From Melioribacteraceae bacterium (GTDB lineage Bacteria > Bacteroidota > Ignavibacteria > Ignavibacteriales > Melioribacteraceae), in contig OY760517.1 of assembly GCA_963663615.1 (NCBI GenBank), positions 1,193,042-1,257,041 on the forward strand: 64,000 nucleotides of DNA, read 5' to 3'. The notes under the pieces were generated by a model. It was not told where the DNA came from. It ran no database searches and saw only the letters and a list, made by a program, of their open reading frames with translations. Below, one piece after another: positions 6,508 through 55,232 of the stretch. A program made the translations under genes and the position numbers. Position 1 is the first letter of the stretch. Every line of letters begins with the position of its first letter.

Positions 6508-6846
6508 GTGAGCAAATACATCGAAATTAGAACCGGGGAAGACTGGAAAAGTTTTCTCGGTGAAGATACTGAAAAGATAATATTCAAATATAGTCCGGTT
6601 TGTGGTATTAGCAGTAGTACGGAGGCTGGTTTTGAAAACTGGTTAAGTAAAGCCGGGGATACTTCAGGTTATTCAATTGCCAAAATAGACGTAATTTTTT
6701 CCCGTGAGCTTGTTCGTGAAATTGCTGCAAAACTGGGTGTTAAACATGAATCGCCCCAACTGCTTTGGTTAAATAAAGATAATTCAATTAAATTACATGC
6801 GAGTCATTTTGGTATTAGTTCGTTACTAGCCAATAATAAAATATAA
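6508..6846 (+). CDS. ytxJ: YtxJ-like monothiol thioredoxin-fold protein (bacillithiol system, DUF2847)
   Basis: KYSPVCGIS matches the single-Cys (T/P)C(P/G)IS motif of YtxJ, and the size is ~110 aa. GTG start with GGAG 7 nt upstream. Confidence 0.6.
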   Translation: MSKYIEIRTGEDWKSFLGEDTEKIIFKYSPVCGISSSTEAGFENWLSKAGDTSGYSIAKIDVIFSRELVREIAAKLGVKHESPQLLWLNKDNSIKLHASHFGISSLLANNKI

Positions 6847-31063: not shown

Positions 31064-34000
31064 ATGAAAAAAGCATTTTTACTGTTTGCTCTTTTATCTT
31101 CATTTCTTTTCGCCCAGAATTTAAAAGTGCTTAAATCAACAAATGATTATGTAGATGTACAAGTTGATTTTGGTAACTCCTACTTTCTTGGTGATACTGT
31201 AATTAATGATATTGAATATGATTATGTTACAAGTTCTGATCCCATTTTGGCTGATGCGGGTTCACCGGCATTGCCAATTTATACTTTTAAGATGGGTATT
31301 CCTCATAATGCTGAAGTATCAGTAAAAATATTAAAAATAGACGATTTTACTTTTGATAACAAGTTTATTCTTCCCCAACCAAGTATGGCTCTTACCGAAG
31401 AGGGTGTTGATGACAAACTTAATTTTAACAAGGAAGTTTACTCAACGAATTCATACTTCCCCAAAGAAATTTCTTCTTTAAGTGGTACATATGTATATCG
31501 TCTCTCAAATATTGCTTCCATAGCCGTTTCACCATATCAGTTCAACCCTGTTACGAGAAAGCTTAAATACAATAAAACTGTTAATGTAAGGGTTTATATA
31601 AAATCCGGTTCAATGAACAACATTAGCAATGTTGCTGATTATGATATGAAAACTGATGAGATGTTAAAAAAATCAGTTGTAAATTATAATCAGGCTCAAA
31701 AATGGACGGGCTTAATTAAGCCTGAAAAGACAAATGTTGCTACAGACTGGTATAATCCAACTAATGTTTATGCCAAAATATTTGTGCAGGAAAAAGGAAT
31801 TTACAGAGTTTATTATGACCAGCTGGATAGTCTTGGATATCAGATGAATAGTATCATGTCTGATAATTTAAGATTGTTTTGCAATGGTGAAGAGGTGCCA
31901 ATACAAGTTTTTGATGGTGAAAACAAAATATTTAGTTCAGGAGATTATTTTCAGTTTGTTGGATTTCCTCCAAAAGCAACCGAATATGCAAGACAAAATA
32001 TTTATAATACAAAAAATGTTTACTGGTTAACCTACGATCCGGATTCGACCGGATTAAGGTATCAGCGTGTAGATGGTTATCCGGTTAATGAGCAAATTAA
32101 ATTACAGAACACTAATGAAGTGATTCATCTTGAAGAGGATCTTCTATTTGAAAGATTTGGTCATGCAGAAGATCTTAACAGAGATAACTGGCAATGGGCT
32201 GTAGTGAGTGGAAGAGATGGTTCACCAGTTAAAAGTTTCACCGCACAGTTCAGATTTCCAGCCAACTGGAATAGTGACAATAAAAATGTGAAGCTCACTT
32301 ATAGTGTTCATGGAATGGAAAAAACAAGCCATAATCCTGAGTTTAGGTTACTTTCTCAAGATATTGGAGATTTCTATTTTACTGGTCAGGAAAGTATTGA
32401 GTATTCTTTTGAACGTGATCTGGATTCATTTTCTCTGGCACCTACTATAAATCTTCAGGTAATAACCCGTGGAGGAAATTACGCATCAACAGACGAAATT
32501 AGAGTTAACTGGATTGATATTAAGTACAATAGATTAAACCGTGTTTTTGGCAATTATTTTGCAATTAATTCACCACAGGATGCACTGAACAGAAGAGCTA
32601 TGTATGAAGTGTGGAGATGGTATGGTGATAGCCTTTGGGTTTATATTCCGGGAACTAATGAGTTGCTTACCAATACCAGACGCCTTAATAACGAGTACCA
32701 AACCTTTCAGTTTATGCATACGGCTACTGAACCACAGGAGTATTTCTGTTTTGATGATGGATACTATTCAGTGCCTGATTCGTTTTCTCTGAATTCAAAC
32801 TCTGATCTATTAAGTACCAGCAACGGTGCCGATTATATAATAATTACACATCCCGATTTTATGGAAGCTGCTGAACAACTTGCTGAATTCAGGAGAAATA
32901 ATCTTGATGGATTTGACAATCCTCGTGTTAAAATTGTAAATGTTTTTGATATTTATAATGAGTTTTCTTTCGGCTTGCTTGACCCCGAAGCAATAAGAGA
33001 ATTTACCATACATGCCTTTTTTTCTTGGCAATTACCACGCCCTTCCTATGTAGCTCTTTTGGGTGATATGAGTTGGGATTACCGTGGACTTTTAGAGGAT
33101 AGCAGGAAGAATTATCTCCCTTCTATGGCTACTAAAACTTACGAACATGGCTACACTGTTGCCGATAACCTCTACGCTGCAGTTTCCGGTGATGATGTTA
33201 TGCCTGATATGGCAATCGGACGTATTTCTTGTGAAACGCCGGAGGAAGCCCAATTATTGGTTGATAAAATTGTAAATTATCCAAATGATCCGGGTAAAGA
33301 GTGGGTTCAAAATACGTTACTTATTGGTGCAGGACAAAATACCGGTGATGAACAGAGTAAGGGTTTTAACGATCAATCACTCTTCCTTGATAATAACTAT
33401 ATTCAGGAAGTTGGGTTTAATTCAACAAAAGTTTTTTATTTCCCTAATAAAGAATCACATGAACCTTTTAAGGGCGGTACTCCTGAAATAAGGCAAGGTT
33501 TTAATGATGGTTGTATAATGGCTAACTTTTACGGACATGGTGGCGGTTATCAGTGGGATGCAGTTTTCCTTAATGACGATATTTACCTGCTGGAAAATGA
33601 AGGACGTATGCCATTTGTAACCAGTATTACATGTTATACTGCACATTTCGATAACCAAAAAGTTTTTGGTGAAAACTTTAATCTCGCTGCCGGCAGAGGG
33701 TCAATTGGGTTTTTTGGACATACCGGAATTACCTTGTGGAATTATGGTGTGGATATGAACAAGAGGCTCTATAACTATTTGTTCCTTGAAGGTGAAGAAG
33801 TTTTAGGTGATGCTGTACTGTTAGCCAAAACTAACTTTAACGGTATTCTTACAAATAATACAAAAGATCATCTAAATTGTTTAACATTGCTTGGTGATCC
33901 GGCTCTTAAACTTGCCTTGCCAGAATATGCCGACTTTGCTGTTGGAACAAGTAATATTAGTATTAATCCTTCAACACCACTGGTTGATGATTCAACAAAC

Positions 34001-36760
34001 GTTTATGTTGACATCAATAATATTGGTCGGTATATAGATACTGATTCAGTATATGTAAGACTTGAAGCCACTGGTCCTGATACAAGTTTTGTTTTGGGTA
34101 CGAAGAAAATTGCAAGCTTCAGAGATCGCGATACACTTGAATTTGGATTTACCCCAAGAAAGGATGGAATTTTTACTTTTACCGCCAGTGTAAATATGCA
34201 AAACCAAATTGAAGAAATTGATTTTAGTGATAATATCGCTTCGGCTAACTTTGCAGTATTTAGTATTGCGGAACCTAGTTTGGTTAAACCGTATGATGGT
34301 GCGGTTGTTAAATCAGATAATTTTGAGGTTACAATAGCAGATGTTGCAGAATATGTTGAAAGAAATTTAACCTATTATGTTGAAATAGATACCAGTTTGG
34401 AATTTAATGATCCAATGTATCAATCTGCCGAGTTGATCCCTGAAAAAAATGGAGTTCTTGAATATGCTCCATCTATATCTGCAGGCAAATATTTCTTGAG
34501 ATCACGTATCAGGGAAGGTGAAAAATACTCTTACTGGTCTCCAACAATAACCTTTACTATATCGGATAACAATGATGAAAAAGGTTATCACATAAATGAA
34601 AACCAGCTAAAAATACTTAACTATTCAAATATGCAGTATAATGAATCAATATCTGCTATGGTAATGAACAGAACAAACAATCCGCCCGAACCAAAAGGAA
34701 CATCTATTCTTGATGAAATGATGATGGATACACTTATGCCAGCAGATGTTCACTCATTAACTGCTATCGCTACTGATGGTTCCTATATTTATTTCGGGCA
34801 TATGGGTTATTTTGGAGTTGCTTATGATAACTTTGATGAAGCGACACCAATCTACAAAGTTGGTACCGGTTATAATGGTACTACCAGGGGAGTGGTTGAA
34901 GGACCAATTAGTGAGAACAGAGTTCCTATATGGAAATCAATGTTTCATTTGGATGGAGCATTGTATTTTGCACAGTTAGACCCTAATTTTATTATGAAAC
35001 TTGATTTAGCAACCGGTGATACATCATCAATTTATGTACCGGCAGGATTTTATGACGATCTTAATACATTGGTTCAAACCGGTGGATCGTACGTACAGTC
35101 GGATGGTCGTTATGTATATAACCTGGCATTTAAGGATACGCTCGATGAGTATTATTACACAATGAGAATGTTTGACCCTTATAATGAATGGGAGCAGGTT
35201 GGCGATGATATTGTGTTAACCGGTAGCAGTTATGAAGGTTTTTCAGGATTTTTTATAGCTGAAGGAATTTTGTATGTATTCGAAAAAAATATTTCGAACT
35301 ATGTTAGACAGTATAGTCTGGAAACTCATATATATATAAATGAATGGAAAATTTATGGTAACAGTCGCTTTGACGGCTTCTACACTTATTGTTATGACCG
35401 TGTTAATGATAAGGTTTATGGTAGCACGCACTATGGCAGCAAACCAAAGAAATTTTCAATATTCAGAGGTACATATAACGAGGGTTTAGCCTCAATCGAA
35501 ACCCCACAGATAGGTCCGGCAAGTGAATGGGGAAATATTAACTATAACATTGATTCCGAAAACTCGTTGGGGGTTTACAATGTTAAACTTACAGGCAGAA
35601 ATGTGAGCACCAATTCCTGGGTAGTTATTGAAGATACTTTGGATGGTAACTATACTCCGGATGATTCGTTGAATGGAAAGTATGACTATCTGAAAATGAA
35701 CTTTGATCTTAAAGATAATTCCGAAGGAGATAACAAAAAACTATCACTCCATGAAATAAATGTTCAATATACTTCATTTCCCGAAATTATTGTATCTGAA
35801 GGCTATTTCAGATTTGCACCTGACTCGTTATTACAAGGTTTTGATCTTTATCTTGAACTCGACATAAAAAATGTTGGTGATGCCAAGGCAAATAATGTAA
35901 AAATAGACCTTTCCCTTAATGATGCTGATTCTGCATTCTACTCAACAAACATTGATATTGATGCGAACACAGAAATTACATTGAATGATACAATCAATAC
36001 ATCCACTTTATTATTTGATAATACTGTTAAAGTAAATGTTGAATCGGCAACTCCGGAATTATATACGTTTAATAATATCGCTAAAAATTCATTTTATGTA
36101 TCCCGGGATTCGCTCATTCCAACATTTGATATTAGTTTTGATGGTAGAGAAATAATTGATGGCGATTTGGTATCATCCCGCCCCGAAGTGCTCATAACAC
36201 TTAAAGATAATAGTCCGTTGCCACTTGTAGCCGAGAACTTCTACATTTATTATGATCATGCTGAATTGCAGGTGCAGGCAAAGGATTCGATGCAGTTTAA
36301 CTATACACCATACCCTGATTCGAAGGCGGAAATAACCTGGACTCCATTAATGAATGACGGACCGCATCGTCTTGAAGTTCTTGCAAAAGATGCTTCAAAC
36401 AACTTTTTTGATTCAACCCAATATGTAATTACATTCAGGGTAGATACTGAAAACAAAATTGAAGATATTTATAATTATCCAAATCCATTTACAGACGATA
36501 CATGGTTTACGTTTACCTTAACCGGTTCTGAAACTCCGCAGGAATTGCAGATCAGAATATATACAGTTACAGGAAGACTAATTCGTGTAATTGATGTGAT
36601 GCCAAATGAAATGGAAATCAAACTTTTAAACAAGATTTACTGGGACGGAAGAGACCAGGATGGTGATACGATTGCTAACGGTGTATATTTGTATAAAGTA
36701 ATTGCAAAATATCCTGATAAAAATATCACTGAAATCAAAAAACTCGCCAAGGTGAAATAA
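31064..36760 (+). CDS. Peptidase C25 (gingipain-family) multidomain protein with T9SS C-terminal domain
   Basis: Signal peptide. The catalytic region (nt ~32816-33914) has ADYIIITHPDF, YVALLGD, NFYGHGG (His) and SITCYTAHF (Cys). C-terminal NYPNPFTDDTWFTF...IYWDGRDQDGDTIANGVYLYKV is a FlgD-Ig/T9SS sorting domain. Confidence 0.8.
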   Translation: MKKAFLLFALLSSFLFAQNLKVLKSTNDYVDVQVDFGNSYFLGDTVINDIEYDYVTSSDPILADAGSPALPIYTFKMGIPHNAEVSVKILKIDDFTFDNKFILPQPSMALTEEGVDDKLNFNKEVYSTNSYFPKEISSLSGTYVYRLSNIASIAVSPYQFNPVTRKLKYNKTVNVRVYIKSGSMNNISNVADYDMKTDEMLKKSVVNYNQAQKWTGLIKPEKTNVATDWYNPTNVYAKIFVQEKGIYRVYYDQLDSLGYQMNSIMSDNLRLFCNGEEVPIQVFDGENKIFSSGDYFQFVGFPPKATEYARQNIYNTKNVYWLTYDPDSTGLRYQRVDGYPVNEQIKLQNTNEVIHLEEDLLFERFGHAEDLNRDNWQWAVVSGRDGSPVKSFTAQFRFPANWNSDNKNVKLTYSVHGMEKTSHNPEFRLLSQDIGDFYFTGQESIEYSFERDLDSFSLAPTINLQVITRGGNYASTDEIRVNWIDIKYNRLNRVFGNYFAINSPQDALNRRAMYEVWRWYGDSLWVYIPGTNELLTNTRRLNNEYQTFQFMHTATEPQEYFCFDDGYYSVPDSFSLNSNSDLLSTSNGADYIIITHPDFMEAAEQLAEFRRNNLDGFDNPRVKIVNVFDIYNEFSFGLLDPEAIREFTIHAFFSWQLPRPSYVALLGDMSWDYRGLLEDSRKNYLPSMATKTYEHGYTVADNLYAAVSGDDVMPDMAIGRISCETPEEAQLLVDKIVNYPNDPGKEWVQNTLLIGAGQNTGDEQSKGFNDQSLFLDNNYIQEVGFNSTKVFYFPNKESHEPFKGGTPEIRQGFNDGCIMANFYGHGGGYQWDAVFLNDDIYLLENEGRMPFVTSITCYTAHFDNQKVFGENFNLAAGRGSIGFFGHTGITLWNYGVDMNKRLYNYLFLEGEEVLGDAVLLAKTNFNGILTNNTKDHLNCLTLLGDPALKLALPEYADFAVGTSNISINPSTPLVDDSTNVYVDINNIGRYIDTDSVYVRLEATGPDTSFVLGTKKIASFRDRDTLEFGFTPRKDGIFTFTASVNMQNQIEEIDFSDNIASANFAVFSIAEPSLVKPYDGAVVKSDNFEVTIADVAEYVERNLTYYVEIDTSLEFNDPMYQSAELIPEKNGVLEYAPSISAGKYFLRSRIREGEKYSYWSPTITFTISDNNDEKGYHINENQLKILNYSNMQYNESISAMVMNRTNNPPEPKGTSILDEMMMDTLMPADVHSLTAIATDGSYIYFGHMGYFGVAYDNFDEATPIYKVGTGYNGTTRGVVEGPISENRVPIWKSMFHLDGALYFAQLDPNFIMKLDLATGDTSSIYVPAGFYDDLNTLVQTGGSYVQSDGRYVYNLAFKDTLDEYYYTMRMFDPYNEWEQVGDDIVLTGSSYEGFSGFFIAEGILYVFEKNISNYVRQYSLETHIYINEWKIYGNSRFDGFYTYCYDRVNDKVYGSTHYGSKPKKFSIFRGTYNEGLASIETPQIGPASEWGNINYNIDSENSLGVYNVKLTGRNVSTNSWVVIEDTLDGNYTPDDSLNGKYDYLKMNFDLKDNSEGDNKKLSLHEINVQYTSFPEIIVSEGYFRFAPDSLLQGFDLYLELDIKNVGDAKANNVKIDLSLNDADSAFYSTNIDIDANTEITLNDTINTSTLLFDNTVKVNVESATPELYTFNNIAKNSFYVSRDSLIPTFDISFDGREIIDGDLVSSRPEVLITLKDNSPLPLVAENFYIYYDHAELQVQAKDSMQFNYTPYPDSKAEITWTPLMNDGPHRLEVLAKDASNNFFDSTQYVITFRVDTENKIEDIYNYPNPFTDDTWFTFTLTGSETPQELQIRIYTVTGRLIRVIDVMPNEMEIKLLNKIYWDGRDQDGDTIANGVYLYKVIAKYPDKNITEIKKLAKVK

Positions 36761-42334: not shown

Positions 42335-42928
42335 ATGTTTTTTAATGATGTTTACCTGGTTAAGGAAAGAATTGCCTTCCTGAAATTAACTGATACTTAC
42401 GATATTTTTGATCCGGCAGATGGAAGCCAGATTGCAATTGCAAAGGAAAAATCTAGTGGAGTAATGAAATATTTGCGGTTAGTTCTTAATAAGGGATTGC
42501 TTCCTTCAAAAGTTTTTGTGTATGAGGGAGATGATTTTAATAACGAATCCAAACTACAGTTTTCAATACAGAGAGGATTTTCATTCCTAAGATCAAGGGT
42601 TAATGTTTGTGATGCATCCGGTAATATACTTGGTTATATGATTAGCAAAATATTTACACTGGGTGGAGCATTTACTGTTTTCGATAATAATGATAAACAG
42701 GTAGCTTATGTTAAGGGGGACTGGAAAGGCTGGAATTTTGAAATGACTGACAGTAGTGGCAATACGCTTGGTAAAATTACTAAAAAATGGACTGGATTGG
42801 GGCAAGAATTGTTTACATCTGCTGATAACTATATAATTAAAGTTTTTGATAACACCAAAAAAGGGCACGCTATATTATTGCTTGCTGCCGGTCTTGCAGT
42901 CGATACGGTTTATAAGGAAAAGAGTTAG
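42335..42928 (+). CDS. Scramblase/LURP-one-related (Tubby C-terminal-like) family protein
   Basis: GKITKKWTGLGQELFTSADNYIIKVF resembles the K-W-G-x-x-E-x-FTDAD-x-(F/Y)-x-I-x-F signature of phospholipid scramblase-family proteins. Confidence 0.5.
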   Translation: MFFNDVYLVKERIAFLKLTDTYDIFDPADGSQIAIAKEKSSGVMKYLRLVLNKGLLPSKVFVYEGDDFNNESKLQFSIQRGFSFLRSRVNVCDASGNILGYMISKIFTLGGAFTVFDNNDKQVAYVKGDWKGWNFEMTDSSGNTLGKITKKWTGLGQELFTSADNYIIKVFDNTKKGHAILLLAAGLAVDTVYKEKS

Positions 42929-45570: not shown

Positions 45571-47007
45571 TTACCAAATTTCAGAAGTTAGAAGTGCAAT
45601 TATTGTCCAAATCTCCAATCTGCCGATCAACATTATTACAGTAAAAAAATATTTACTAAAAATTGTAAAATGTTCAAAGTTGTTAAATGGTCCTACATCG
45701 CCAATGCCAGGTCCCACATTTCCAAGTGTAGCAGCAATTGAGGTAAATGCAGTAGCGGTTGAGTAACCTTCCACGGCTTTTATAAGTACACCGCTTATAA
45801 TAAAAATAATAACATAAGCGTAAATGTAGTTTAATGCCTTTATAATGTTTTCATTGGGTAAAGTAGTTCCATCCAGCGTAACAATTTGCACACTTTTTGG
45901 GTGTAGCATTTTTGTAATGCGTGATTTTATTGCTCCCCAGAATACCAACCAGCGTGACATTTTAATTGATCCGCTTGTTGATAGACTCATTCCGCCAAAG
46001 AACATAACAAGTATGAGAATAAACTGTGCGGATTCGGGCCAATATTTGAAATCAGCAGTGGCGAAACCTGTTGTTGTAATGAGTGAAATGATCGTGAAAA
46101 ATGAATCGCGTAATGCACCAAGTAGTGTGTAATCAGTTTTATTTATTAATATAATTGTGGAAAGAATGGATGTGATGAAAATAATCCCCAAGAAGGTTTT
46201 AAATGATGTACTCTTAAAATATATCCCCGGTTTGCCCCGCAATGCACGGTAATGCAAAACAAAGCTGGTTGCACCGGCTATCATAAATATTGAGAGGACT
46301 ATCTCTATATATTCGCTATTAAATGCGGCAACGCTATCGTTACGGGTAGAAAAACCACCCCCTGCAATGCTGCTGAATGAGTGGGTTATTGCCTCGTACA
46401 AGTTCATGGCTGGTAAAAGCATTACAACCTGAATTACTGTTAATAGCAGGTAAACTTTCCAGAATTTTTTTGCAATTTCAGAGAATCGAGGGAAAAATTT
46501 TCGCTCGTCAGGTGCGATTGGAGCCTCTGACTCGAACAGGAATTTTTTGCCGGGGGTATTCGGGAATAGTGCAATTACCATTACAATTATTCCCATTCCG
46601 CCAAGCCAGTGAGTTTCCGAACGCCAAAATAATATGCTTTTGGGGAGCGATTCAATATCGTTTAATATTGTTGATCCGGTTGCGGTAAATCCTGATACAG
46701 ATTCAAAATAGGCATCTGCAAATGAAGTGAAATAGTGCGATATATAATAGGGGAGTGCACCCGTTATACTAACTATTACCCATGTTAAAGTTACCAAAAG
46801 GAATGTGTCATGGTAGCGGAGATCAGGGGGATCACCTTTATAAAGCAATGAAGCCAAACCTGAAAGCAGACAAAATGCCACAGGTATATAGAAGTAAACA
46901 TGGGTGTTTTCTTCAAAAATAAACGATACCACAAGCGGAGCAAGCATTGCGAGTCCGTAAACCCCGAGTATCCTTAATATATAAAAGCCAATTCTGTATA
47001 ACTTCAT
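45571..47007 (-). CDS. trkH: TrkH/KtrB-family potassium uptake protein
   Basis: Polytopic, with repeated pore-loop-like TATGF / SIAGGGFS / TTTGFAT / GNVGPG motifs. Confidence 0.85.
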   Translation of the reverse strand: MKLYRIGFYILRILGVYGLAMLAPLVVSFIFEENTHVYFYIPVAFCLLSGLASLLYKGDPPDLRYHDTFLLVTLTWVIVSITGALPYYISHYFTSFADAYFESVSGFTATGSTILNDIESLPKSILFWRSETHWLGGMGIIVMVIALFPNTPGKKFLFESEAPIAPDERKFFPRFSEIAKKFWKVYLLLTVIQVVMLLPAMNLYEAITHSFSSIAGGGFSTRNDSVAAFNSEYIEIVLSIFMIAGATSFVLHYRALRGKPGIYFKSTSFKTFLGIIFITSILSTIILINKTDYTLLGALRDSFFTIISLITTTGFATADFKYWPESAQFILILVMFFGGMSLSTSGSIKMSRWLVFWGAIKSRITKMLHPKSVQIVTLDGTTLPNENIIKALNYIYAYVIIFIISGVLIKAVEGYSTATAFTSIAATLGNVGPGIGDVGPFNNFEHFTIFSKYFFTVIMLIGRLEIWTIIALLTSEIW

Positions 47008-47128
47008 TGCCGTACTAAAATTTTTCCAAACTATAAACTTACATAAATTATCGTTTTTAAAGAAGTAATCTTTAGAAAATCCGGGGGTTAGCTCTTCTGT
47101 TTAACACTGCTGAAAAATTAGGTTTGGC

Positions 47129-47182
47129 TTGGGGACCTCATCCTATCCACCATTGGTGGACCTCTCCTACATGGAGAAGGAC
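47129..47182. repeat. GC-rich hairpin element, left copy of an inverted pair
   Basis: CTTGGGGACCTCATCC...TCCACCATTGGTGGA...CCTCTCCTACATGGAGAAGG. Its reverse complement has the same layout as 47259-47318: a CCTTCTCC/GGAGAAGG-type hairpin followed by GGATGAGGT. Confidence 0.55.
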
Positions 47183-47258
47183 TTTTGTATGGTTTGCAGA
47201 CTTTAACAAAAATTCATTGAATGTTTGGATTTGAAACAAACAGTCGAGTTATTTAATC

Positions 47259-47318
47259 AGCCCCTTCGCCTTTCAGGAGAAGGGGTTCCCCACGTCGAAT
47301 AAATCTGGGGATGAGGTA
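47259..47318. repeat. GC-rich hairpin element, right copy of an inverted pair
   Basis: CCCCTTCGCC-TTTC-AGGAGAAGGGG hairpin, a TCCCCA...TGGGGA hairpin, then GGGGATGAGGT, which is complementary to ACCTCATCC at 47135-47143. Confidence 0.55.
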
Positions 47319-47408
47319 TTACAACTTCCCAAATAATTTACCAAAATGGTTGCCATTTAAGATATTTGAAGTTAAATTTAAATTAGAGTAAATAAACGAA
47401 GGTAGTGT

Positions 47409-49970
47409 ATGTTTGAAATGATTGTAAGTTCACTTGTAGGATATGCAACCACCAAAGGGCTGGATTGGGCGTTAAAGGATAATTCAAAAGCTCAAAAGGG
47501 GCTTACAAAACATATCAGGGAAACTACTGATGAATTTAAGTCTAAATACCCTATTGCGGAGGAGGGTACCAAATATCCGTTTTATAATTCACATGTGTTT
47601 GTTACAGAACTATTAAAAGCTCGTTTTTTTATAAACCGAGGATATAGTTTTAACATTTCCGAAATACAGGAATCTACCAACGAGCTAACAAATGTAATAA
47701 AACCTACAAATGAACAGGTAGTAGAATTCCTTAATGTTTTGGAAAATAAACTAAAAGAGGATGAGGATATAGAAGAGTTTGTTATCTCAGAAAACTATAA
47801 ACGTGAAATTTTTAATATAACAAACCTTCATTTACTATTACATGATAAACTGGACAACATAGAGAATAAACTTGATGACCTAAGCAGACAAGCAAATAAA
47901 AATCTTGAAGAAGGACAGCTAAACAATGTACCAAGCCGTGATGAAAGTGAAATAATTGGTAGAGGCAATAAACTTAATGAGGTGAAGCAAAAATTAAATG
48001 CCGGTGAACCGGTACTGTTATTAAACGGAATGGGTGGTGTTGGTAAAACAACAATTGCCGAGGTATTTGTTGCAAAATATTTTGCTGATTACAAACACAC
48101 TGCATGGATTACAGTTAAAGATAGTTTTGAGGATGCCCTAATTTCTGATTCGCTGTTGATTAAAAATCTTGGAATTACAAATACTGAAACTAAAAATTTA
48201 CTGGGTGAGTGCTTAGTTAAACTTAACAATTTACCCGGACCAAATTTACTAATTATTGATAATGCAGATATAAACCTGAAAAAAATTAAAAGGTTTTTAC
48301 CAAAAGCCCCTAACTGGCACATTTTAATTACTTCACGAAACAGAATGAAGGAATTTAATATTATTGATGTTGATTTTTTAACTGAAGATGAAGCAATAGA
48401 ATTATTTACCAAGTTTTGCAAAAGGTTTGATAATAACCAGATTAAAAATATTGTTAACCTTGTTGAATTACATACACTTACTGTTGAGGTGTTTGCAAAG
48501 GCTGCTGAAGAAAACAACTGGAGCTACGAAACATTATGCAACGCGCTTAAAGAAAACAGGGAAACCAATATTGATGATGTGCAACATGCAGATACCGAAC
48601 CGCTTGGTAAAATAAAAACTTACCTTGTTCGTATTTTTAACGCAAGTAATTTAACCCAAAACCAAAAATATATATTAAAACAATTTGCTGCCTTACCACA
48701 GGAATATTTTAGTATTGAAGTATTACAAGCATTATTACAGGTTGAGCAGCTTGATTGGAAAGAAAATTTTGTACATGAGGTAAAAACTTTATACCGAACC
48801 GGTTTTTTAATGTTTAATGAAGAAATAAATGCCTACAAACTACACGCTGTATTAAATGAAGTAGTTTTGGCAGAACTAAAACCCACAGTTGAAGATTGCA
48901 CGTTCCTTATAAACAGCGTAACTAATTTAGTAAGTTATGACCATCACAAAGATGACTATACCAAAAAATTCCCTTATATACCTTTGGGTGAAGCTGTGCT
49001 TAAAGTATTTAATAATTCTGAACATGAAAAAATTGCAATATTACAAAATTACCTTGGTATTTTGCTAAAACAGGCAGGTTTTTATGAAAAAGCCCGTGAA
49101 TATTTGGAAAAAGCGTTAGAGTTAGGTGCAAAGAATTTTGGAGAGAATCATCCCACAGTATCAATACTTTATTCAAACTTTGGTCTTGTCTATAAGGATT
49201 TGGGCGATTATGAAAAAGCCCGTGAATATTTGGAAAAAGCGTTAGAGTCAGGTATTAAAAACTTTGGAGAGACACATCCTACAGTGGCAACATATTATTC
49301 AAACCTTGGTCTTGTCTATCGGGATTTGGGCGATTATGAAAAAGCCCGTGAATATTTGGAAAAAGCGTTAGAGTTAGGTGCAAAGAATTTTGGAGAGAAT
49401 CATCCCACAGTATCAATACTTTATTCAAACCTTGGTCTTGTCTATAAGGATTTGGGCGATTATGAAAAAGCCCGTGAATATTTGGAAAAAGCGTTAGAGT
49501 CAGATATAAAAAACTTTGGAGAAGATCATCCCAGTGTAGCAACAAGATATTCAAACCTTGGTAGTGTTTATCAGGCTTTGGGCGATTATGAAAAAGCCCG
49601 TGATTATTTGGAAAAAGCGTTAGAGTCAGGTATTAAAAATTTTGGAGAAGATCATCCCAGTGTAGCAATAGATTATTCAAATCTTGGTATGGTTTATAAG
49701 GATTTGGGCGAATATGAAAAAGCCCGTGATTATTTGGAAAAAGCGTTAGAGTCAGATATAAAAAACTTTGGAGAAAATCATCCCAGTGTAGCAACTGATT
49801 TAAATAATCTGGGGTATGTTTATTGGAATATGGAAATGTTTAAAGAGGCAATTGAATCATGGGAACAGGCTTTTGTGATTTTGAAGGATACACTTGGTTT
49901 GGCACACCCATATACCAAAAGTGTGCAAAATACCCTTGAGCAGGCATATAAATTAACTGGCAAGGGGTAA
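47409..49970 (+). CDS. STAND NTPase: unknown N-terminal module + NB-ARC + TPR repeats
   Basis: Walker A GMGGVGKTT (48027-48053), Walker B LLIIDNAD (48246-48269), ILITSRN, then a helical region. At least six kinesin-light-chain-type TPRs follow (NLGLVYKDLGDYEKAREYLEKALE...FGENHPSVA). Confidence 0.85.
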   Translation: MFEMIVSSLVGYATTKGLDWALKDNSKAQKGLTKHIRETTDEFKSKYPIAEEGTKYPFYNSHVFVTELLKARFFINRGYSFNISEIQESTNELTNVIKPTNEQVVEFLNVLENKLKEDEDIEEFVISENYKREIFNITNLHLLLHDKLDNIENKLDDLSRQANKNLEEGQLNNVPSRDESEIIGRGNKLNEVKQKLNAGEPVLLLNGMGGVGKTTIAEVFVAKYFADYKHTAWITVKDSFEDALISDSLLIKNLGITNTETKNLLGECLVKLNNLPGPNLLIIDNADINLKKIKRFLPKAPNWHILITSRNRMKEFNIIDVDFLTEDEAIELFTKFCKRFDNNQIKNIVNLVELHTLTVEVFAKAAEENNWSYETLCNALKENRETNIDDVQHADTEPLGKIKTYLVRIFNASNLTQNQKYILKQFAALPQEYFSIEVLQALLQVEQLDWKENFVHEVKTLYRTGFLMFNEEINAYKLHAVLNEVVLAELKPTVEDCTFLINSVTNLVSYDHHKDDYTKKFPYIPLGEAVLKVFNNSEHEKIAILQNYLGILLKQAGFYEKAREYLEKALELGAKNFGENHPTVSILYSNFGLVYKDLGDYEKAREYLEKALESGIKNFGETHPTVATYYSNLGLVYRDLGDYEKAREYLEKALELGAKNFGENHPTVSILYSNLGLVYKDLGDYEKAREYLEKALESDIKNFGEDHPSVATRYSNLGSVYQALGDYEKARDYLEKALESGIKNFGEDHPSVAIDYSNLGMVYKDLGEYEKARDYLEKALESDIKNFGENHPSVATDLNNLGYVYWNMEMFKEAIESWEQAFVILKDTLGLAHPYTKSVQNTLEQAYKLTGKG
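49083..49838 (+). repeat. Six tandem 126-bp (42-codon) TPR-encoding repeats inside the STAND gene
   Basis: The unit starts TATGAAAAAGCCCGTGA(A/T)TATTTGGAAAAAGCGTTAGAGT. Units 1 (49083-49208) and 3 (49335-49460) differ at a single nucleotide. Confidence 0.9.
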
Positions 49971-49973
49971 AGG

Positions 49974-50014
49974 GTAGGGGCAATTCGTGACCATAGATTC
50001 CGATTTATAAGCGG
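49974..50014. repeat. Palindromic repeat family GTAGGGGCAATTC..., copy A (3' arm degenerate)
   Basis: GTAGGGGCAATTCGTGACCATAGATTCCGATTTATAAGCGG, 4 nt after the STAND stop codon. Confidence 0.7.
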
Positions 50015-50041
50015 CAGAAAGTCGAATAAATTAAAATTGTA

Positions 50042-50070
50042 TATGGGACGATTCGTGAATCGTCCGTACG
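50042..50070. repeat. Palindromic repeat family, short copy B
   Basis: TATGGGACGATTCGTGAATCGTCCGTACG. The arms GGACGATTC / GAATCGTCC are perfectly complementary. Confidence 0.7.
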
Positions 50071-50199
50071 ATTAGTTGAGAAGTTTAGTACCCGTTCTTT
50101 GGGAGCAATTATTTGCCATTTATATTTCAACATATTTTTTTGAAATAAGTGTTTTATCGAATTTTAATTCACAAATATTTTCTTTTAAAAGGAGACATT

Positions 50200-50814
50200 A
50201 TGGCAACAGAAAGTACAAATTCGATTACATTTAAAGAAACATTACTCATTGAAGAGTATAAAAGACTCAGAGCCGATAGACGTTACTGGGATAGTGCTCT
50301 ATTAAGAATTTTTATCCTACTTATCACAGTAGCGTTTTTAAGTATTGGTGCGATTATGCAACAATTACACCTCTCTAATGGTCAAAACAGTAACAATCTT
50401 ATTTGGAAAGTAATGATTATTGTTGCACCATATATTATGTCAATATTTTTTTCCGTTTACTTTATTATTATTGGCTCAATTAAGTTTAACTGTTTTTATA
50501 TAAAAAAGTTTGAAGAAAAATTTAATGATATTTTGGGAGAGAGCATTTTTAACTGGGAGCTCAAATTTATTGAAATGATGAGCCGCCCTTACTCAATTCA
50601 GTTTTGGGGTACAATCCTTTTTGCCGCTTATGTTCTAACCATTGAAGTCTATACCATGTATTTAAGCGGTGTTTACTTACATGATAATATATATAAACCT
50701 TACATAGTTTATACTCAGTGGCCAATATTTGGGGTTAATACAATTTTACTGATATATCATATTACACTCGAAAAAAGAGTAATTAAGTATTTTATCCGTA
50801 AAAAGGGTCTTTGA
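50200..50814 (+). CDS. Small 4-TM membrane protein of unknown function
   Basis: ATG 50200 is preceded by AAAGGAGA (50188-50195). Four hydrophobic helices; N-terminal cytoplasmic EEYKRLRADRRYWDS helix. Confidence 0.55.
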   Translation: MATESTNSITFKETLLIEEYKRLRADRRYWDSALLRIFILLITVAFLSIGAIMQQLHLSNGQNSNNLIWKVMIIVAPYIMSIFFSVYFIIIGSIKFNCFYIKKFEEKFNDILGESIFNWELKFIEMMSRPYSIQFWGTILFAAYVLTIEVYTMYLSGVYLHDNIYKPYIVYTQWPIFGVNTILLIYHITLEKRVIKYFIRKKGL

Positions 50815-50916
50815 GTTATAATTTGATTGATTTTGTGTCACATCGGGTTGGTAATCCGCTCTGCAATAGTGTTGCGTTTGATGCTTTTTGCTGTACACAA
50901 ACCTCTGAGATTAAAT

Positions 50917-51076
50917 GTTGGAGCAATTCATGTCACAAGATTCCGATTTATCGGAAAATCGCTCTTACGAAATAGAAATTAAATGTAGGGGCGATTCGTG
51001 TCCCCTGGATTCAGATTTGTCAATGGGGGCAATTCATGTCCTTAGATTCCGATTTATCGGAAAATTGCCCCTACGG
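50917..51076. repeat. Cluster of three copies (D,E,F) of the palindromic repeat family
   Basis: D is 50917-50969, E is 50985-51024, F is 51025-51076. The full unit is GGGGCAATTCATGTC-N-AGATTCCGATTTATCGGAAAATTGCCCCTACGG, with an outer stem GGGGCAATT/AATTGCCCC and an inner stem TTCCGA/TCGGAA. Confidence 0.75.
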
Positions 51077-51089
51077 AGTACAAATTAAA

Positions 51090-53780
51090 TTATTTCAGCA
51101 ATACCATTTTGCGGGTTTGGGTAAATTTACCCGCTTTTATTGTGTAAAAATATACACCGCTTGAGTATTGGGCTGCGTTAAAGTTTAGGGTGTAGCTACC
51201 TGCTTTTTTGTTTTCGTTTATAAGGGCAGCGGTTTTGCGTCCAAGTAAGTCGTAAATGTAAATTTCAACGTGTGTATCTTCCGGTAACTGGTAGCTTATT
51301 GTAGTTGCCGGATTAAACGGGTTAGGGTAATTTTGCAGTAGCTTGTACTCGGTTGGAGTTTCAGCCTCTTCTTCCACACCGGAAATTTCGTGAACCAGCG
51401 AAAACTTTACAGCATCGGCACGTATTACAGCACCTGCTGAGCTTGTGCCGTCATCCATTACTTGCAGGGTAACTGTTTCGCCTATATTAAGCATTTGTGT
51501 AAATAGGAATTTCCATTCCGGAGATTCATAATTTTGATCAAGGTATGCGTTTTTTACCTCATTGCCGTTAACATAAAGTGTATATTTGGCGTTATCGGTA
51601 CTGTTTTCGCTTTTTGGCAGCATAACATAAACCTGGTAAATACCGTTGTACTTAACACTAACATTGTATTGTGCATAATTAAGCGGATTATGGTTAAGGT
51701 AAGCGTACCTGCTCGACTCACCGTAAGCTTGTGTGTTGCTTGTTCGCCAGTCACCAAATTCGTTATAGTTCGATAAGTTTTCGTTATCAACCAGCGAGAA
51801 CGGATTTTCAACAGTTGCACGGCAAACAACTTTTTGGACCGGATTTATTGGATCGTCACTAACTATTTTAATTGTATCCTGAAAAATACCTGTTTCGGTT
51901 GCAAGGAATTTTACCGGAATATCCAAATTGCTCATTGGCTCAATAGTAATAGTTCTTTCCAGTACAGGATTAAACAAACCACTAACTGAGCTTATTTCGC
52001 TAATGGAAACAGATTCAATTCCATTATTTTGAATAGTAAGAGTAGCGTAAGCAGTTTCATATTTTGAAACAAGTTGAAAATCAAGCTCATAAACTTCTGG
52101 TCTTAATTCCTTGTCGCGAACAAGATCGCTCACCTTTAATACGTCAATTGCAAACTTTTTAGGCTTAATTGAGCCAGCGTAAGCAACAACGCTTAATTGG
52201 TTCTGAACCGGAGCATTTATATCGGCAGTACCAATGTAAATCCATTTATCAATATCGGGTGCAGAGCTAAATACTTTTCTGAATTGGAAATTGTCTCCGG
52301 TATGCAATTCAACTTTAATTGAATCAGCTGCATCATCAATAGCAGGAAATCTTAAAAAGTAATTATGCATACCGCTGTTATTTAGGTTAAAGCTGTATAG
52401 CATTTGGGCAGAATCCGATTGTGCAATGGCAGTAGTTTTTGAATCAAGGTTCCAGCCATCGTTAGATACAGTCGTCCAGCCGTTAGAAACAAAAGTACAA
52501 TTTTCGTCATTTGCATCGAAATATGTGTTACCAGCTTTATATTCTCTATGCTCTGTGGTGTGGTTACCAACAAGATCCGTAACTGCAACCGAAAGTTTTG
52601 CTATTTTTGATTTATTTACCGGAGTTGTTGTTCGCCATGTATTGGTTCCGGTAGCCTGGCAATGAAGTCGGGTATAGCGTTCGTAAATATCCTTTACAGC
52701 AACAAACGGTTCACCCTGAAATATAAATTCGTTTACTGAAATTTGGAAATATAAATCTTCACCCGATTCTTCTTCCGAAATAGTAACAGAAGGAGAGTGT
52801 GTATCATGAGTTTTCATCCATTCCTGCATGGCTTCAATAGCCGAGCAATATTGAAATTTAACTGTTGGATAGTTTGCGGCTACAACATGCATTAGCGAAT
52901 CAACTCTTAACATCTGTTCCGGAAAATCAGCCTCGGGCAGGTGCGACCAAACACAAGCCATCTGATCTTGTCCATTCAGTGCATTCTGAAACATTGTTTC
53001 GATGTACGATGAGTTAAAACTTTTCATGTATTTTGAACGTAGTTCCCATCCTTTTAGCTCACCCGGTACCTGATAGTTGGAATCTGCCGGATGGTAAGGT
53101 TCCCATGATGATGGAGCCATAGACCAATTGTAGATATTATTTATCGGTTCTTCGGTAACGTATCTATTGGCAGGGTAATCGTTGTGCATCGAAAATGGTA
53201 GAACATCCTCAAAATAATGTTGCCATTCATTTTCCATAAAATGCCAACCACCACGGAATGATACAGGAAAAACATCTTCATCAATCAATAACTGGCACAA
53301 GGTATATTCAAAATCTTCCTTGTAATCATCCCAATGTAATGCCTGATTCCAGTAATATACACCATCCTGATCATAATCAGTCCAAACGAAGTTATGGTAA
53401 TGAAGTGTAATTTCGTCACCAAGAATTGAAGCATTTTCGCCATGATATTTCTTGAAATAATAAAATATTATTGAATTGGGATCTGGTACATTTGTATTTA
53501 TGGCGTATCTAAAGGTATTACCAGCCATAATCCACCAAGTCATTTTCATTGGGGTTCCGTAACTATCCACCATTTGACTACGCCATGCGGGGTCCATAAC
53601 CTTGTATGCGTTACGACTCTGATCTGTATAAAGACCATGCTTGTAATAATGATAATGTTTTGAAGTATTTAATCCTTCCCAAATGCTAGTATCGCTACCG
53701 AGAACGATATAAACTTTCCCCTGGGAAAAAATTGAAGTTGAGATTACTAAAGCTAAAAGAACAGTAAGTAAATTTTTCAT
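51090..53780 (-). CDS. Secreted protein of unknown function with T9SS C-terminal domain
   Basis: Signal peptide MKNLLTVLLALVISTSIFSQG. C-terminal NYPNPFNPATTISYQLP...GVYFYTIKAG...RKMVLLK. Confidence 0.75.
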   Translation of the reverse strand: MKNLLTVLLALVISTSIFSQGKVYIVLGSDTSIWEGLNTSKHYHYYKHGLYTDQSRNAYKVMDPAWRSQMVDSYGTPMKMTWWIMAGNTFRYAINTNVPDPNSIIFYYFKKYHGENASILGDEITLHYHNFVWTDYDQDGVYYWNQALHWDDYKEDFEYTLCQLLIDEDVFPVSFRGGWHFMENEWQHYFEDVLPFSMHNDYPANRYVTEEPINNIYNWSMAPSSWEPYHPADSNYQVPGELKGWELRSKYMKSFNSSYIETMFQNALNGQDQMACVWSHLPEADFPEQMLRVDSLMHVVAANYPTVKFQYCSAIEAMQEWMKTHDTHSPSVTISEEESGEDLYFQISVNEFIFQGEPFVAVKDIYERYTRLHCQATGTNTWRTTTPVNKSKIAKLSVAVTDLVGNHTTEHREYKAGNTYFDANDENCTFVSNGWTTVSNDGWNLDSKTTAIAQSDSAQMLYSFNLNNSGMHNYFLRFPAIDDAADSIKVELHTGDNFQFRKVFSSAPDIDKWIYIGTADINAPVQNQLSVVAYAGSIKPKKFAIDVLKVSDLVRDKELRPEVYELDFQLVSKYETAYATLTIQNNGIESVSISEISSVSGLFNPVLERTITIEPMSNLDIPVKFLATETGIFQDTIKIVSDDPINPVQKVVCRATVENPFSLVDNENLSNYNEFGDWRTSNTQAYGESSRYAYLNHNPLNYAQYNVSVKYNGIYQVYVMLPKSENSTDNAKYTLYVNGNEVKNAYLDQNYESPEWKFLFTQMLNIGETVTLQVMDDGTSSAGAVIRADAVKFSLVHEISGVEEEAETPTEYKLLQNYPNPFNPATTISYQLPEDTHVEIYIYDLLGRKTAALINENKKAGSYTLNFNAAQYSSGVYFYTIKAGKFTQTRKMVLLK

Positions 53781-53921: not shown

Positions 53922-55232
53922 TTAAATATTCAGTTTAGCCTGACCACTTTCATCAATTTCCGGTTCATCAAAGCCTGGCAGTTCAAGCGATTTAACCGGT
54001 TTAATTGCATTACCAGCTATACCCCTTATGGAACCGTACATATTATTTGTACTAAGCAATACTTTCTGAATTTGTTTTTCACGCTTTTTCCATTGAGTTT
54101 GGAACGCACGTTTTTCAGATTCAAGGTCTTCCTGCATTTGGGTAAAACCTTCAACAATTGCTTCAATTTGTAACCTGAACTCGTTACCGGTAAGGAAATC
54201 ATAAAGTAGCGACATCTTATCGCCTTTATTTTCCTGCGTAGCAATTGCGTTACTAATCTGAACTACAGTATCACGAAGAACAAAACTTAATCCCTTAAAC
54301 TCGCTAAACGTACATATCCAAATTCCGTCACGCTGTCCCATACGATCCATATCGGCTGGCATTGCTTCAGTAACAAGAACTCCGATATCAGCATTTTTTT
54401 CGCGCATATCGGCACGGAATTTTTCAATCCATGTACGCTGGAAATCTTTTGTACGTTTACTTTCGTAATAAATTTTACCAACATCCTGAGCAGTGCGGGT
54501 ATTAACAATTTGCACACAATCGGCACCTCGTGCACCTTTTTTTATCTCTTCAATTTTATCAAGCGGGAAATTTTCTTTCAGGAATTCTTCAATGGCAAGC
54601 TCCTGAACTTCGCCTTGCATCTGCATTGAGCCCTGTTCGGCTTTACGGTTTGCTTCCTTAAGCTGTTCGCGTAACTGGTTAAGCTGATGATCTTTTTCGT
54701 TTAGTTTAAGTTCGTTTTCATCTTCAATCTTTTTACGAATTGATTCACGTTCTATTCTAATCTGCTCGCTAAGTTTTTTTTCAGCCTCAAGTTCAAGCTC
54801 AGCCTTCATATCATCTTTTTCACGTTTCAGTCTTTCAATTTCAGCTTTGGCTTTATTAAAATCGCGAAGCTTTTCCGATTTGCTTGTAAGCTCTTCTTTC
54901 AGGGTTTTCATTTCATCAGCTTGTTCTTCGGTAAGTTTATCGCGGAGTTGTTTTTCGATTTTTTGTTTTTCTTCCTTAACGCGTGTATTAACGTTAGCTT
55001 CAACCTCTTCCTGCATCTTGTTGCGTTCGGTTTGAAGCAGCTGTTTAGCGGTTTTAAGTTTTTCCTGCTCGCTGGTAAGCTGAGCGTATTTCGATTCGTA
55101 TTCTTTTTTCTGCTCACTAAGCTTTGTATTATATTCTTTATTAAGCTGTTCTTTTACCTGCGAAAATAAAACTTCATCTATATCTATTGATGTGCCGCAA
55201 TTAGGACAACTAATAGTATTTTTGTTTTGCAT
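53922..55232 (-). CDS. Zinc-ribbon / long coiled-coil / PD-(D/E)xK-like protein (DUF2130-like)
   Basis: N-terminal ISCPNCGTSIDIDE, ~190 aa of K/E-rich coiled coil, and a C-terminal GAD(238)...YYE(257)SK(259) nuclease-fold-like motif (nt 54456-54521). Confidence 0.6.
   Translation of the reverse strand: MQNKNTISCPNCGTSIDIDEVLFSQVKEQLNKEYNTKLSEQKKEYESKYAQLTSEQEKLKTAKQLLQTERNKMQEEVEANVNTRVKEEKQKIEKQLRDKLTEEQADEMKTLKEELTSKSEKLRDFNKAKAEIERLKREKDDMKAELELEAEKKLSEQIRIERESIRKKIEDENELKLNEKDHQLNQLREQLKEANRKAEQGSMQMQGEVQELAIEEFLKENFPLDKIEEIKKGARGADCVQIVNTRTAQDVGKIYYESKRTKDFQRTWIEKFRADMREKNADIGVLVTEAMPADMDRMGQRDGIWICTFSEFKGLSFVLRDTVVQISNAIATQENKGDKMSLLYDFLTGNEFRLQIEAIVEGFTQMQEDLESEKRAFQTQWKKREKQIQKVLLSTNNMYGSIRGIAGNAIKPVKSLELPGFDEPEIDESGQAKLNI

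Follow-up and report, generated by a model that had tools for sequence, protein, structure and literature searches.

A compact NB-ARC/TPR STAND protein with an EcAvs2-type N-terminal domain as a candidate one-protein defense sensor in a Melioribacteraceae genome

The interval 47008-51089 of the analyzed DNA of a Melioribacteraceae bacterium (the window, that is, the whole stretch of 64,000 nucleotides) is precisely the gap between trkH and a gene for a cargo protein of the type IX secretion system (T9SS), exactly as originally proposed. It holds a gene for an 853-aa STAND NTPase, an open reading frame (ORF) for a 204-aa membrane protein, and several hairpins, and it raises the question of which of these components form a functional unit and whether this unit serves in antiviral defense. 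The original prediction regarded the interval as a candidate new defense-type system. We assign a probability of roughly 0.6 to the reading in which the STAND gene on its own makes up the functional unit and encodes a one-protein Avs-like (bacterial NLR-like) abortive-infection sensor; the membrane ORF and the hairpin repeats are most likely passengers that share its low-GC intergenic space without being related to it. A defense-type sensor is thus likely, but it does not represent a new class of system, since N-terminal domains of this kind were already described in 2024-2026.

The tripartite Avs-like layout anticipated for the STAND protein, with an N-terminal module, an NB-ARC switch, and a TPR sensor, was recovered in full (Table 1). 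The 853-aa frame and all motifs noticed in it by eye, GMGGVGKTT, LLIIDNAD, and ILITSRN, were found, and the Pfam scan reported both NB-ARC and TPR_12 above their thresholds. A protein identical to the product of this gene is present in public databases on a contig of 4.2 Mb (P0001). The C-terminal repeats were correctly recognized as being of the kinesin-light-chain (KLC) type: TPR_12 matches seven stretches of the protein (E = 3e-116), and the best sequence matches of the C-terminus in the PDB are the TPRs of kinesin light chain (E = 4e-34). By motif only, YKLHAVL in the winged-helix/ARC region may be assigned as the MHD motif.

No matches to Pfam, NCBIfam, or PADLOC were found for the N-terminus (aa 1-190), in line with the expectation that this module carries no enzymatic signatures. 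A family profile of the N-terminal domain, built from ten sequences and searched against 1.84 billion representative proteins, yielded 326 clusters, of which 276 reach E <= 1e-10. Among solved structures in the PDB, this profile matched a single one, chain A of 9o4e (E = 2.6e-15), entitled 'AVAST type 2 anti-phage system protein Avs2' (E. coli; hereafter EcAvs2), and its only significant match to that chain is to the first ~160 residues. The same relationship was observed (i) for the window domain taken as a single sequence against 9o4e (E = 3.4e-5), (ii) in the BLASTP alignment with EcAvs2 (30% identity over 128 aa, E = 2e-9), and (iii) in the hhalign comparison with the EcAvs2 effector (99.5% probability, E = 5e-23, 143 columns). 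In the family member P0170, which starts with MEPIS, residues 1-161 align with residues 1-158 of EcAvs2. Judged by these alignments, the N-terminal ~160 aa are homologous to the N-terminal effector domain of EcAvs2, and the module is not the undescribed output domain that it had been taken for.

In the paper on structure 9o4e (August 2026), the EcAvs2 effector was characterized as 'distinct, uncharacterized', without an evident enzymatic function; it cannot be seen in the cryo-EM map, is rich in conserved non-polar residues, is predicted to tetramerize, and is modular, forming the N-terminus of at least 8 other defense systems, while EcAvs2 works as a single protein (PMC13601566). Its first ~15 residues, the 'MEPIS' region, are common to Avast2, bNACHT02/11/23, the Bab executioner, and the Bell/Hell domains, which are membrane-targeting; mutating this region impairs Avast2 defense, and in the proposed model, helix 1 is released and then targets the membrane (bioRxiv 10.1101/2024.11.07.622273). 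In the literature of 2024-2026, the EcAvs2-type effector is presented as a death module that is modular and non-enzymatic and whose first helix is hydrophobic (PMC13601566; bioRxiv 10.1101/2024.11.07.622273); fusions of it occur with STANDs of various kinds and with TPR-GreAB-C-PIN (TGP) proteins.

The domain of the window protein begins with residue 1. Its AlphaFold2 model, obtained with a 50-sequence alignment, is all-helical and confident (pLDDT 88.9, pTM 0.70), with helices at aa 2-15, 19-22, 26-46, 62-77, 83-91, 101-117, and 119-169; a first model, based on a 10-sequence alignment, was discarded (pLDDT 66), and the Foldseek search with that model was meaningless. The family column profile of helix 1 reads F/V/A/I/A/Y and then K-G-L-D. 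Conservation in the domain is mostly non-polar, with F58 invariant and L32, I36, Y59, S61, and L68 near-invariant, and the tabulated columns (aa 1-75) contain no conserved acidic, basic, or histidine triad and no conserved catalytic-type residues.

From the domain identities and the homology to EcAvs2, we infer a defense role and a mode of killing that is probably membrane-directed, non-enzymatic, and brought about by trigger-induced oligomerization. The following course of events may be envisaged: (i) the near-identical 42-aa TPR units at the C-terminus would bind the trigger, most likely a phage protein, (ii) the binding would free the NB-ARC switch for ATP-dependent oligomerization, as expected from STAND biology, Walker A, Walker B, sensor-1, and an MHD-like His all being present, (iii) the oligomerization would cluster the N-terminal ~160-aa helical domains, (iv) the clustering would free helix 1, with damage to the cytoplasmic membrane or engagement of a host partner, and (v) the cell would die before the phage has finished its cycle, as has been suggested for Bab, HET-S, and the plant ZAR1 resistosome. 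Step (iv) is suggested by the homology to EcAvs2, the lack of conserved catalytic residues, and the hydrophobic first helix of the MEPIS/Bell-HeLo type.

The features that support a role in defense are the N-terminal domain shared with EcAvs2, a validated phage-defense protein, and with TGP defense proteins, the swapping of effectors on the same chassis, the single-gene organization, and the fast-evolving sensor. Close NB-ARC/TPR homologs carry other N-termini, namely TIR (P0010, P0029, P0074), CHAT (P0024, P0036), SIR2_2 (P0063), and a kinase. The six examined homolog loci have six different neighborhoods without a conserved neighbor, and the STAND genes in them are solitary; the context is housekeeping in five loci and includes a SIR2_2 gene in the sixth, the sample being too small for a clade-level statistic. 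These scattered contexts are consistent with an accessory-islet status of the gene. At the locus of P0015, a divergent STAND family member, the SIR2_2-domain gene lies ~3 kb upstream (L105, 1-823) and is the only defense-type neighbor among the six loci.

The carriers of the N-terminal domain almost always have it at the extreme N-terminus, and nine database proteins have it in common with the window protein along their entire length. Of the 45 carriers sampled, 13 belong to the NB-ARC proteins (12 of these together with TPR_12), and eight are ~1250-aa PIN-TPR-GreABC proteins (PIN domain PF20698). The commonest carriers fall into the 1200-1299 aa bin (89 of ~150 proteins). This census matches the published distribution of the EcAvs2 effector (PMC13601566). 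A search for phage-encoded homologs of the domain found none. The ~1230-1265-aa carriers, for instance P0093 and P0106, are of the TGP type and have the death domain as a direct fusion; an amyloid motif instead couples the death domain and the TGP protein in the Bab/Agp pair as published. One carrier departs from the positional pattern: in P0127 (1788 aa), the domain is internal (aa 970-1118), and the order is leucine-rich repeats (LRR)-Roc-COR(A/B), N-domain, NB-ARC, TPR_12. This arrangement would be odd if a free N-terminal helix is needed, and it could be a ROCO-STAND or a gene-call fusion.

The TPR array is, by sequence comparison, the fastest-evolving part of the STAND protein. Two of its close relatives (P0004 and P0005) share 95.7% identity over aa 1-540 but 71% in the TPRs, and the difference between them amounts to exactly five 42-aa units. 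In the window gene, the 126-nt units encoding the repeats have 83-94% DNA identity, with the variation concentrated at few positions. Among six such units at 48956-49885, identity reaches 94% (119/126), which is sufficient for unequal recombination.

Several observations weigh against the assignment of the STAND protein as a sensor of this kind. PADLOC v2.0.0, proposed as a check of the defense role, found no defense-system model on the protein, only generic TPR models. Its NTPase and sensor chassis is not that of Avs2, none of the proteins with precisely this architecture has been tested experimentally, and the killing mechanism of the EcAvs2 effector itself is unproven. Instead of a literal M-E-P start, the window protein shows MFEMIVSS, a shorter variant (the M(A)[ED]P[ILVT] start is found in 9 of 120 relatives), and its helix 1 is shorter by 3-8 residues than in most relatives. 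A Foldseek comparison of the confident model with the PDB found no match to HeLo, MLKL, ZAR1-CC, or Bab-like structures. The best hits in the PDB and BFVD had E-values of 0.4-0.5 and TM-scores of ~0.2, none significant, and Bcl-xL was dismissed as a structural relative because its match is at noise level (PDB best E = 0.41, TM-score ~0.2). The structural analysis suggested in the original prediction has therefore given a confident model but no solved structural relative, and because no fold match was found, the membrane-targeting step depends on the short N-terminal motif and on arguments from the literature. The Walker B motif has the D-N form (hhhhD-N-A) rather than D-D/E, a form kept in the clade (45 of 60 homologs), so that ATP hydrolysis may be slow, weak, or absent. 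Finally, the genes of the window at 37-63 kb are all housekeeping and do not constitute a defense island.

Among the alternatives, the best surviving, although unlikely, one is that the protein is a non-immune signaling or scaffold NB-ARC/TPR protein, for instance a TPR protein of the FxSxx-COOH-system type or a regulator. Its best NCBIfam match is FxSxx_TPR (NF040586, E = 1e-78), many STAND clades are not involved in defense (PMC13581612), and the gene has neither defense neighbors nor a PADLOC match beyond generic TPR. However, the score of 265.7 bits is below the curated cut-off of 300, the highest-scoring stretch falls within the TPRs, and no partner Fxs genes occur in the vicinity; membership in the FxSxx-COOH system was rejected on the basis of the score and the missing partners. 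Furthermore, the protein has no helix-turn-helix or other output domain, its N-terminal domain is common to EcAvs2 and TGP defense proteins, its sister proteins bear the TIR, CHAT, and SIR2 death effectors, and one relative is encoded ~3 kb from a SIR2_2 gene.

A second alternative, which we regard as quite improbable, makes the 204-aa membrane protein a receptor, co-effector, or immunity partner in a two-gene system where the STAND protein senses. The ORF itself is sound: as predicted, it is a separate frame with a strong Shine-Dalgarno sequence (AAAGGAGA precedes it), none of 2000 shuffles attained its open length of 221 codons, and in codon usage it is similar to the host genes, so that it is very probably a real gene. 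The claim of four transmembrane segments was sustained in part: two hydrophobic segments are strong (aa 34-52 and 73-91), but the other two are weaker (aa 137-155 and 168-186), all by Kyte-Doolittle hydrophobicity only. The two genes lie on the same strand 229 nt apart, both are lower in GC than their neighbors (33.6% in the STAND gene and 30.1% in the ORF, compared with 35-40%), which is consistent with an accessory islet or acquisition, and an N-terminal domain predicted to act on membranes might plausibly need a membrane partner. On the other hand, a word-indexed search of 5.8 billion proteins returned only the 204-aa protein itself, and no family match was found in Pfam, PADLOC, NCBIfam, or PHROGs. 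A comparable neighbor is absent from all six STAND homolog loci, and since the ORF has no counterpart there, the co-occurrence of the two genes that a partnership implies is not seen. The sole adjacent transmembrane protein, at the locus L001, is encoded on the opposite strand and is unrelated to the ORF (E = 0.74). Decayed repeats and a hairpin lie between the two genes, alignment of STAND aa 1-50 with the ORF revealed no shared motif, and EcAvs2 is a single-protein system (PMC13601566). The partnership claimed for the two proteins is hence not borne out. It would be a long shot that the ORF is a lineage-specific partner of the MEPIS-type domain (a docking site, co-pore subunit, or antidote) in a two-component NLR-membrane system that would have no counterpart elsewhere, or else that the compact NB-ARC/TPR protein is a true bacterial 'resistosome' pore.

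The weakest alternative, an amyloid-signaling receptor whose first ~15-25 residues would be a BASS-like motif templating a separate Bell-type executioner (cf. Bab/Agp and NWD2/HET-S), draws on the reported homology of the first 15 residues of the EcAvs2 effector to amyloid signaling proteins (PMC13601566) and on the existence of NB-ARC NLRs with N-terminal BASS motifs (bioRxiv 10.1101/2024.11.07.622273), but it is hardly credible, as the cited homology concerns the N-terminal helix of the executioner (Bab/Bell) and not the C-terminal amyloid motif, helix 1 belongs to a folded ~160-aa domain (pLDDT 88.9), the adjacent gene contains no matching motif, and no Bell-like gene is found beside any homolog locus. 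The corresponding gene-pair model was rejected, STAND aa 1-50 and the 204-aa ORF having no motif in common.

GC-rich hairpins are indeed present in the interval, but instead of two families at both borders we found a single true repeat family, GGGGCAATTCRTG-N6-GATTCCGATTTAT, with three long copies (49977, 50920, 51026), among which only that at 51024-51073 forms an intact strong hairpin; two short hairpins (50045, 50988) share the 5' arm of the family. The family flanks the 204-aa ORF and not the whole islet, contrary to the proposed bracketing, and the hairpins upstream of the STAND gene are unique within the window. Apart from one weak partial match at 6745, the element has local copies only in the window, and the pattern gave no exact matches in metagenome contigs. 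We treat these repeats as REP/MITE-like elements between genes, and nothing connects them with the STAND gene. Both the upstream hairpins' region (47294-47304) and the sequence right behind the decayed repeat downstream of the STAND gene (50022-50032) contain the 11-mer GTCGAATAAAT, which could be chance in AT-rich DNA.

Table 1. Features of the interval 47008-51089 and its two flanking genes (positions in the window)
Feature	Position	Strand	Basis and remarks
trkH	45571-47007	-	Pfam TrkH, E = 2e-63
Two adjacent GC-rich hairpins, trkH-STAND divergent intergenic region	47260..47311	+	-26 kcal/mol, z -2.6
STAND NTPase gene, 853 aa	47409..49970	+	EcAvs2-type N-domain, NB-ARC, TPR_12 array; ORF call and Pfam
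N-terminal all-helical domain, aa 1-~170, putative death effector	47409..47918	+	Homologous to the EcAvs2 effector domain
Helix 1, aa 2-15, FEMIVSSLVGYATT	47412..47453	+	Hydrophobic, small-residue; 'MEPIS' counterpart; AlphaFold2, column profile, literature
NB-ARC NTPase core, aa 188-347	47970..48449	+	Pfam PF00931, E = 6.7e-12, 45.6 bits vs cut-off 23.5
Walker A GMGGVGKTT, aa 207-215, lysine K213	48027..48053	+	Motif
Walker B LLIIDNA, aa 280-286 (LLIIDNAD, 280-287)	48246..48266	+	Motif
Sensor-1/RNBS-B-like ILITSR, aa 305-310 (ILITSRN, 305-311)	48321..48338	+	Motif in 47/60 homologs
MHD-like YKLHAVL, aa 476-482, winged-helix/ARC region	48834..48854	+	Regular expression; kept in closest homologs
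TPR_12 (KLC-type) array, ~7 units of 42 aa and cap, putative ligand sensor	49023..49967	+	
Decayed GGGGCAATTCRTG...GATTCCGATTTAT element, past the STAND stop codon	49977..50008	+	
Short hairpin sharing the GGGACGATTCGTG arm	50046..50065	+	-10.9 kcal/mol
Orphan 204-aa membrane ORF	50200..50814	+	Open frame, hydrophobic segments; link to STAND system not demonstrated
Second copy of the palindromic element, partly degenerate	50917..50968	+	-12.4 kcal/mol
Short hairpin sharing the GGGGCGATTCGTG arm	50983..51010	+	-10 kcal/mol
Intact copy of the palindromic element	51024..51073	+	-21.5 kcal/mol, z -3.76, 0/200 shuffles
T9SS cargo gene	51090-53780	-	Golvesin_C and Por_Secre_tail

The genomic setting was compared with other genomes using TrkH as an anchor. 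The scan of GTDB (185,579 species genomes) identified 71 loci, the nearest TrkH being 55% identical, and the scan of JGI metagenomes identified 28 loci, with 46% identity in the best segment and ~41% for full-length matches; no close relative was present in either set. Neither the STAND N-terminal domain nor the membrane ORF was found beside trkH in any of the 71 GTDB loci, which were the ones covered by this screen, the 28 metagenome loci not being included. The Rfam scan of the region 45-54 kb found no matches, and the terminator and promoter scans gave chance-level results. Three other genes of the window were recorded in passing. The 436-aa DUF2130 protein (53922-55232, minus strand) starts at its N-terminus with a CxxC segment resembling a zinc ribbon and contains a long coiled coil; its weak PADLOC matches to JetC/LmuB are probably due to coiled-coil bias. 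A 197-aa protein (42335-42928, plus strand) matches the Pfam family Scramblase (E = 2e-14), best known from eukaryotes, and a very large ORF of 1898 aa (31064-36760, plus strand) lies upstream of glmS.

The EcAvs2-type domain is among the few widespread effectors of bacterial NLRs whose killing mechanism is unexplained. The 853-aa protein, which comes from a poorly sampled lineage of the FCB group, is a compact carrier of this domain in which a canonical NB-ARC switch is combined with a TPR sensor of simple, regular build. The protein might serve as a tractable model for asking whether the clustering of MEPIS-type domains permeabilizes membranes, like the resistosomes of plant CC-NLRs, and how ligand specificity is diversified by near-identical TPR arrays.

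Comparison of the window protein with known systems revealed both common and distinct features. With EcAvs2 (AVAST type 2), it shares the N-terminal ~160-aa domain, homologous end to end at 30% pairwise identity, the order of effector, STAND NTPase, and helical-repeat sensor, and the single-gene organization. In contrast to the 1484-aa EcAvs2, it has a Pfam NB-ARC and a short regular KLC-type TPR_12 array in 853 aa, and lacks the large helical extension, the elaborate TPR, and the C-terminal beta-rich sensor; it matches no PADLOC Avs model and has no literal MEPIS start. The Avs2 family proper was rejected as an assignment in view of the length (853 vs ~1500 aa), the KLC-type C-terminus, and the generic TPR matches in PADLOC. 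Terminase sensing cannot be assumed for the window protein.

The N-terminal domain is also shared with TGP proteins such as Agp, the ~1250-aa PF20698 PIN proteins being the largest carrier group; the domain is therefore a swappable module of both sensor types. Unlike the TGP proteins, the window protein contains neither GreAB-C nor PIN and has an NB-ARC switch instead. With the Bab 'Babybell', Bell, fungal HeLo/Hell, plant CC(HeLo), and MLKL four-helix-bundle modules, the domain has in common an all-helical death module with a hydrophobic N-terminal helix and, presumably, activation through oligomerization of an upstream sensor; for the EcAvs2 family, to which the domain belongs, Ibarlosa et al. 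aligned the first ~15 residues with Bab/Bell/Hell. It differs from Babybell in being about twice as long (~160 vs ~80 aa), from the Bell/HeLo/four-helix-bundle members in having no significant match to any solved one, and from Bab in that the effector is fused to an NLR and not coupled via an amyloid motif. Plant CC-NLRs, represented by the ZAR1 resistosome, use a sensor of LRRs where the window protein has TPRs, and their CC domains have no detectable sequence or structural homology to its N-terminal domain. In addition to an NB-ARC switch, both have a helical bundle at the N-terminus and a repeat sensor at the C-terminus, and for both a release of the first helix upon oligomerization is proposed; the resemblance between them lies in the working principle only.

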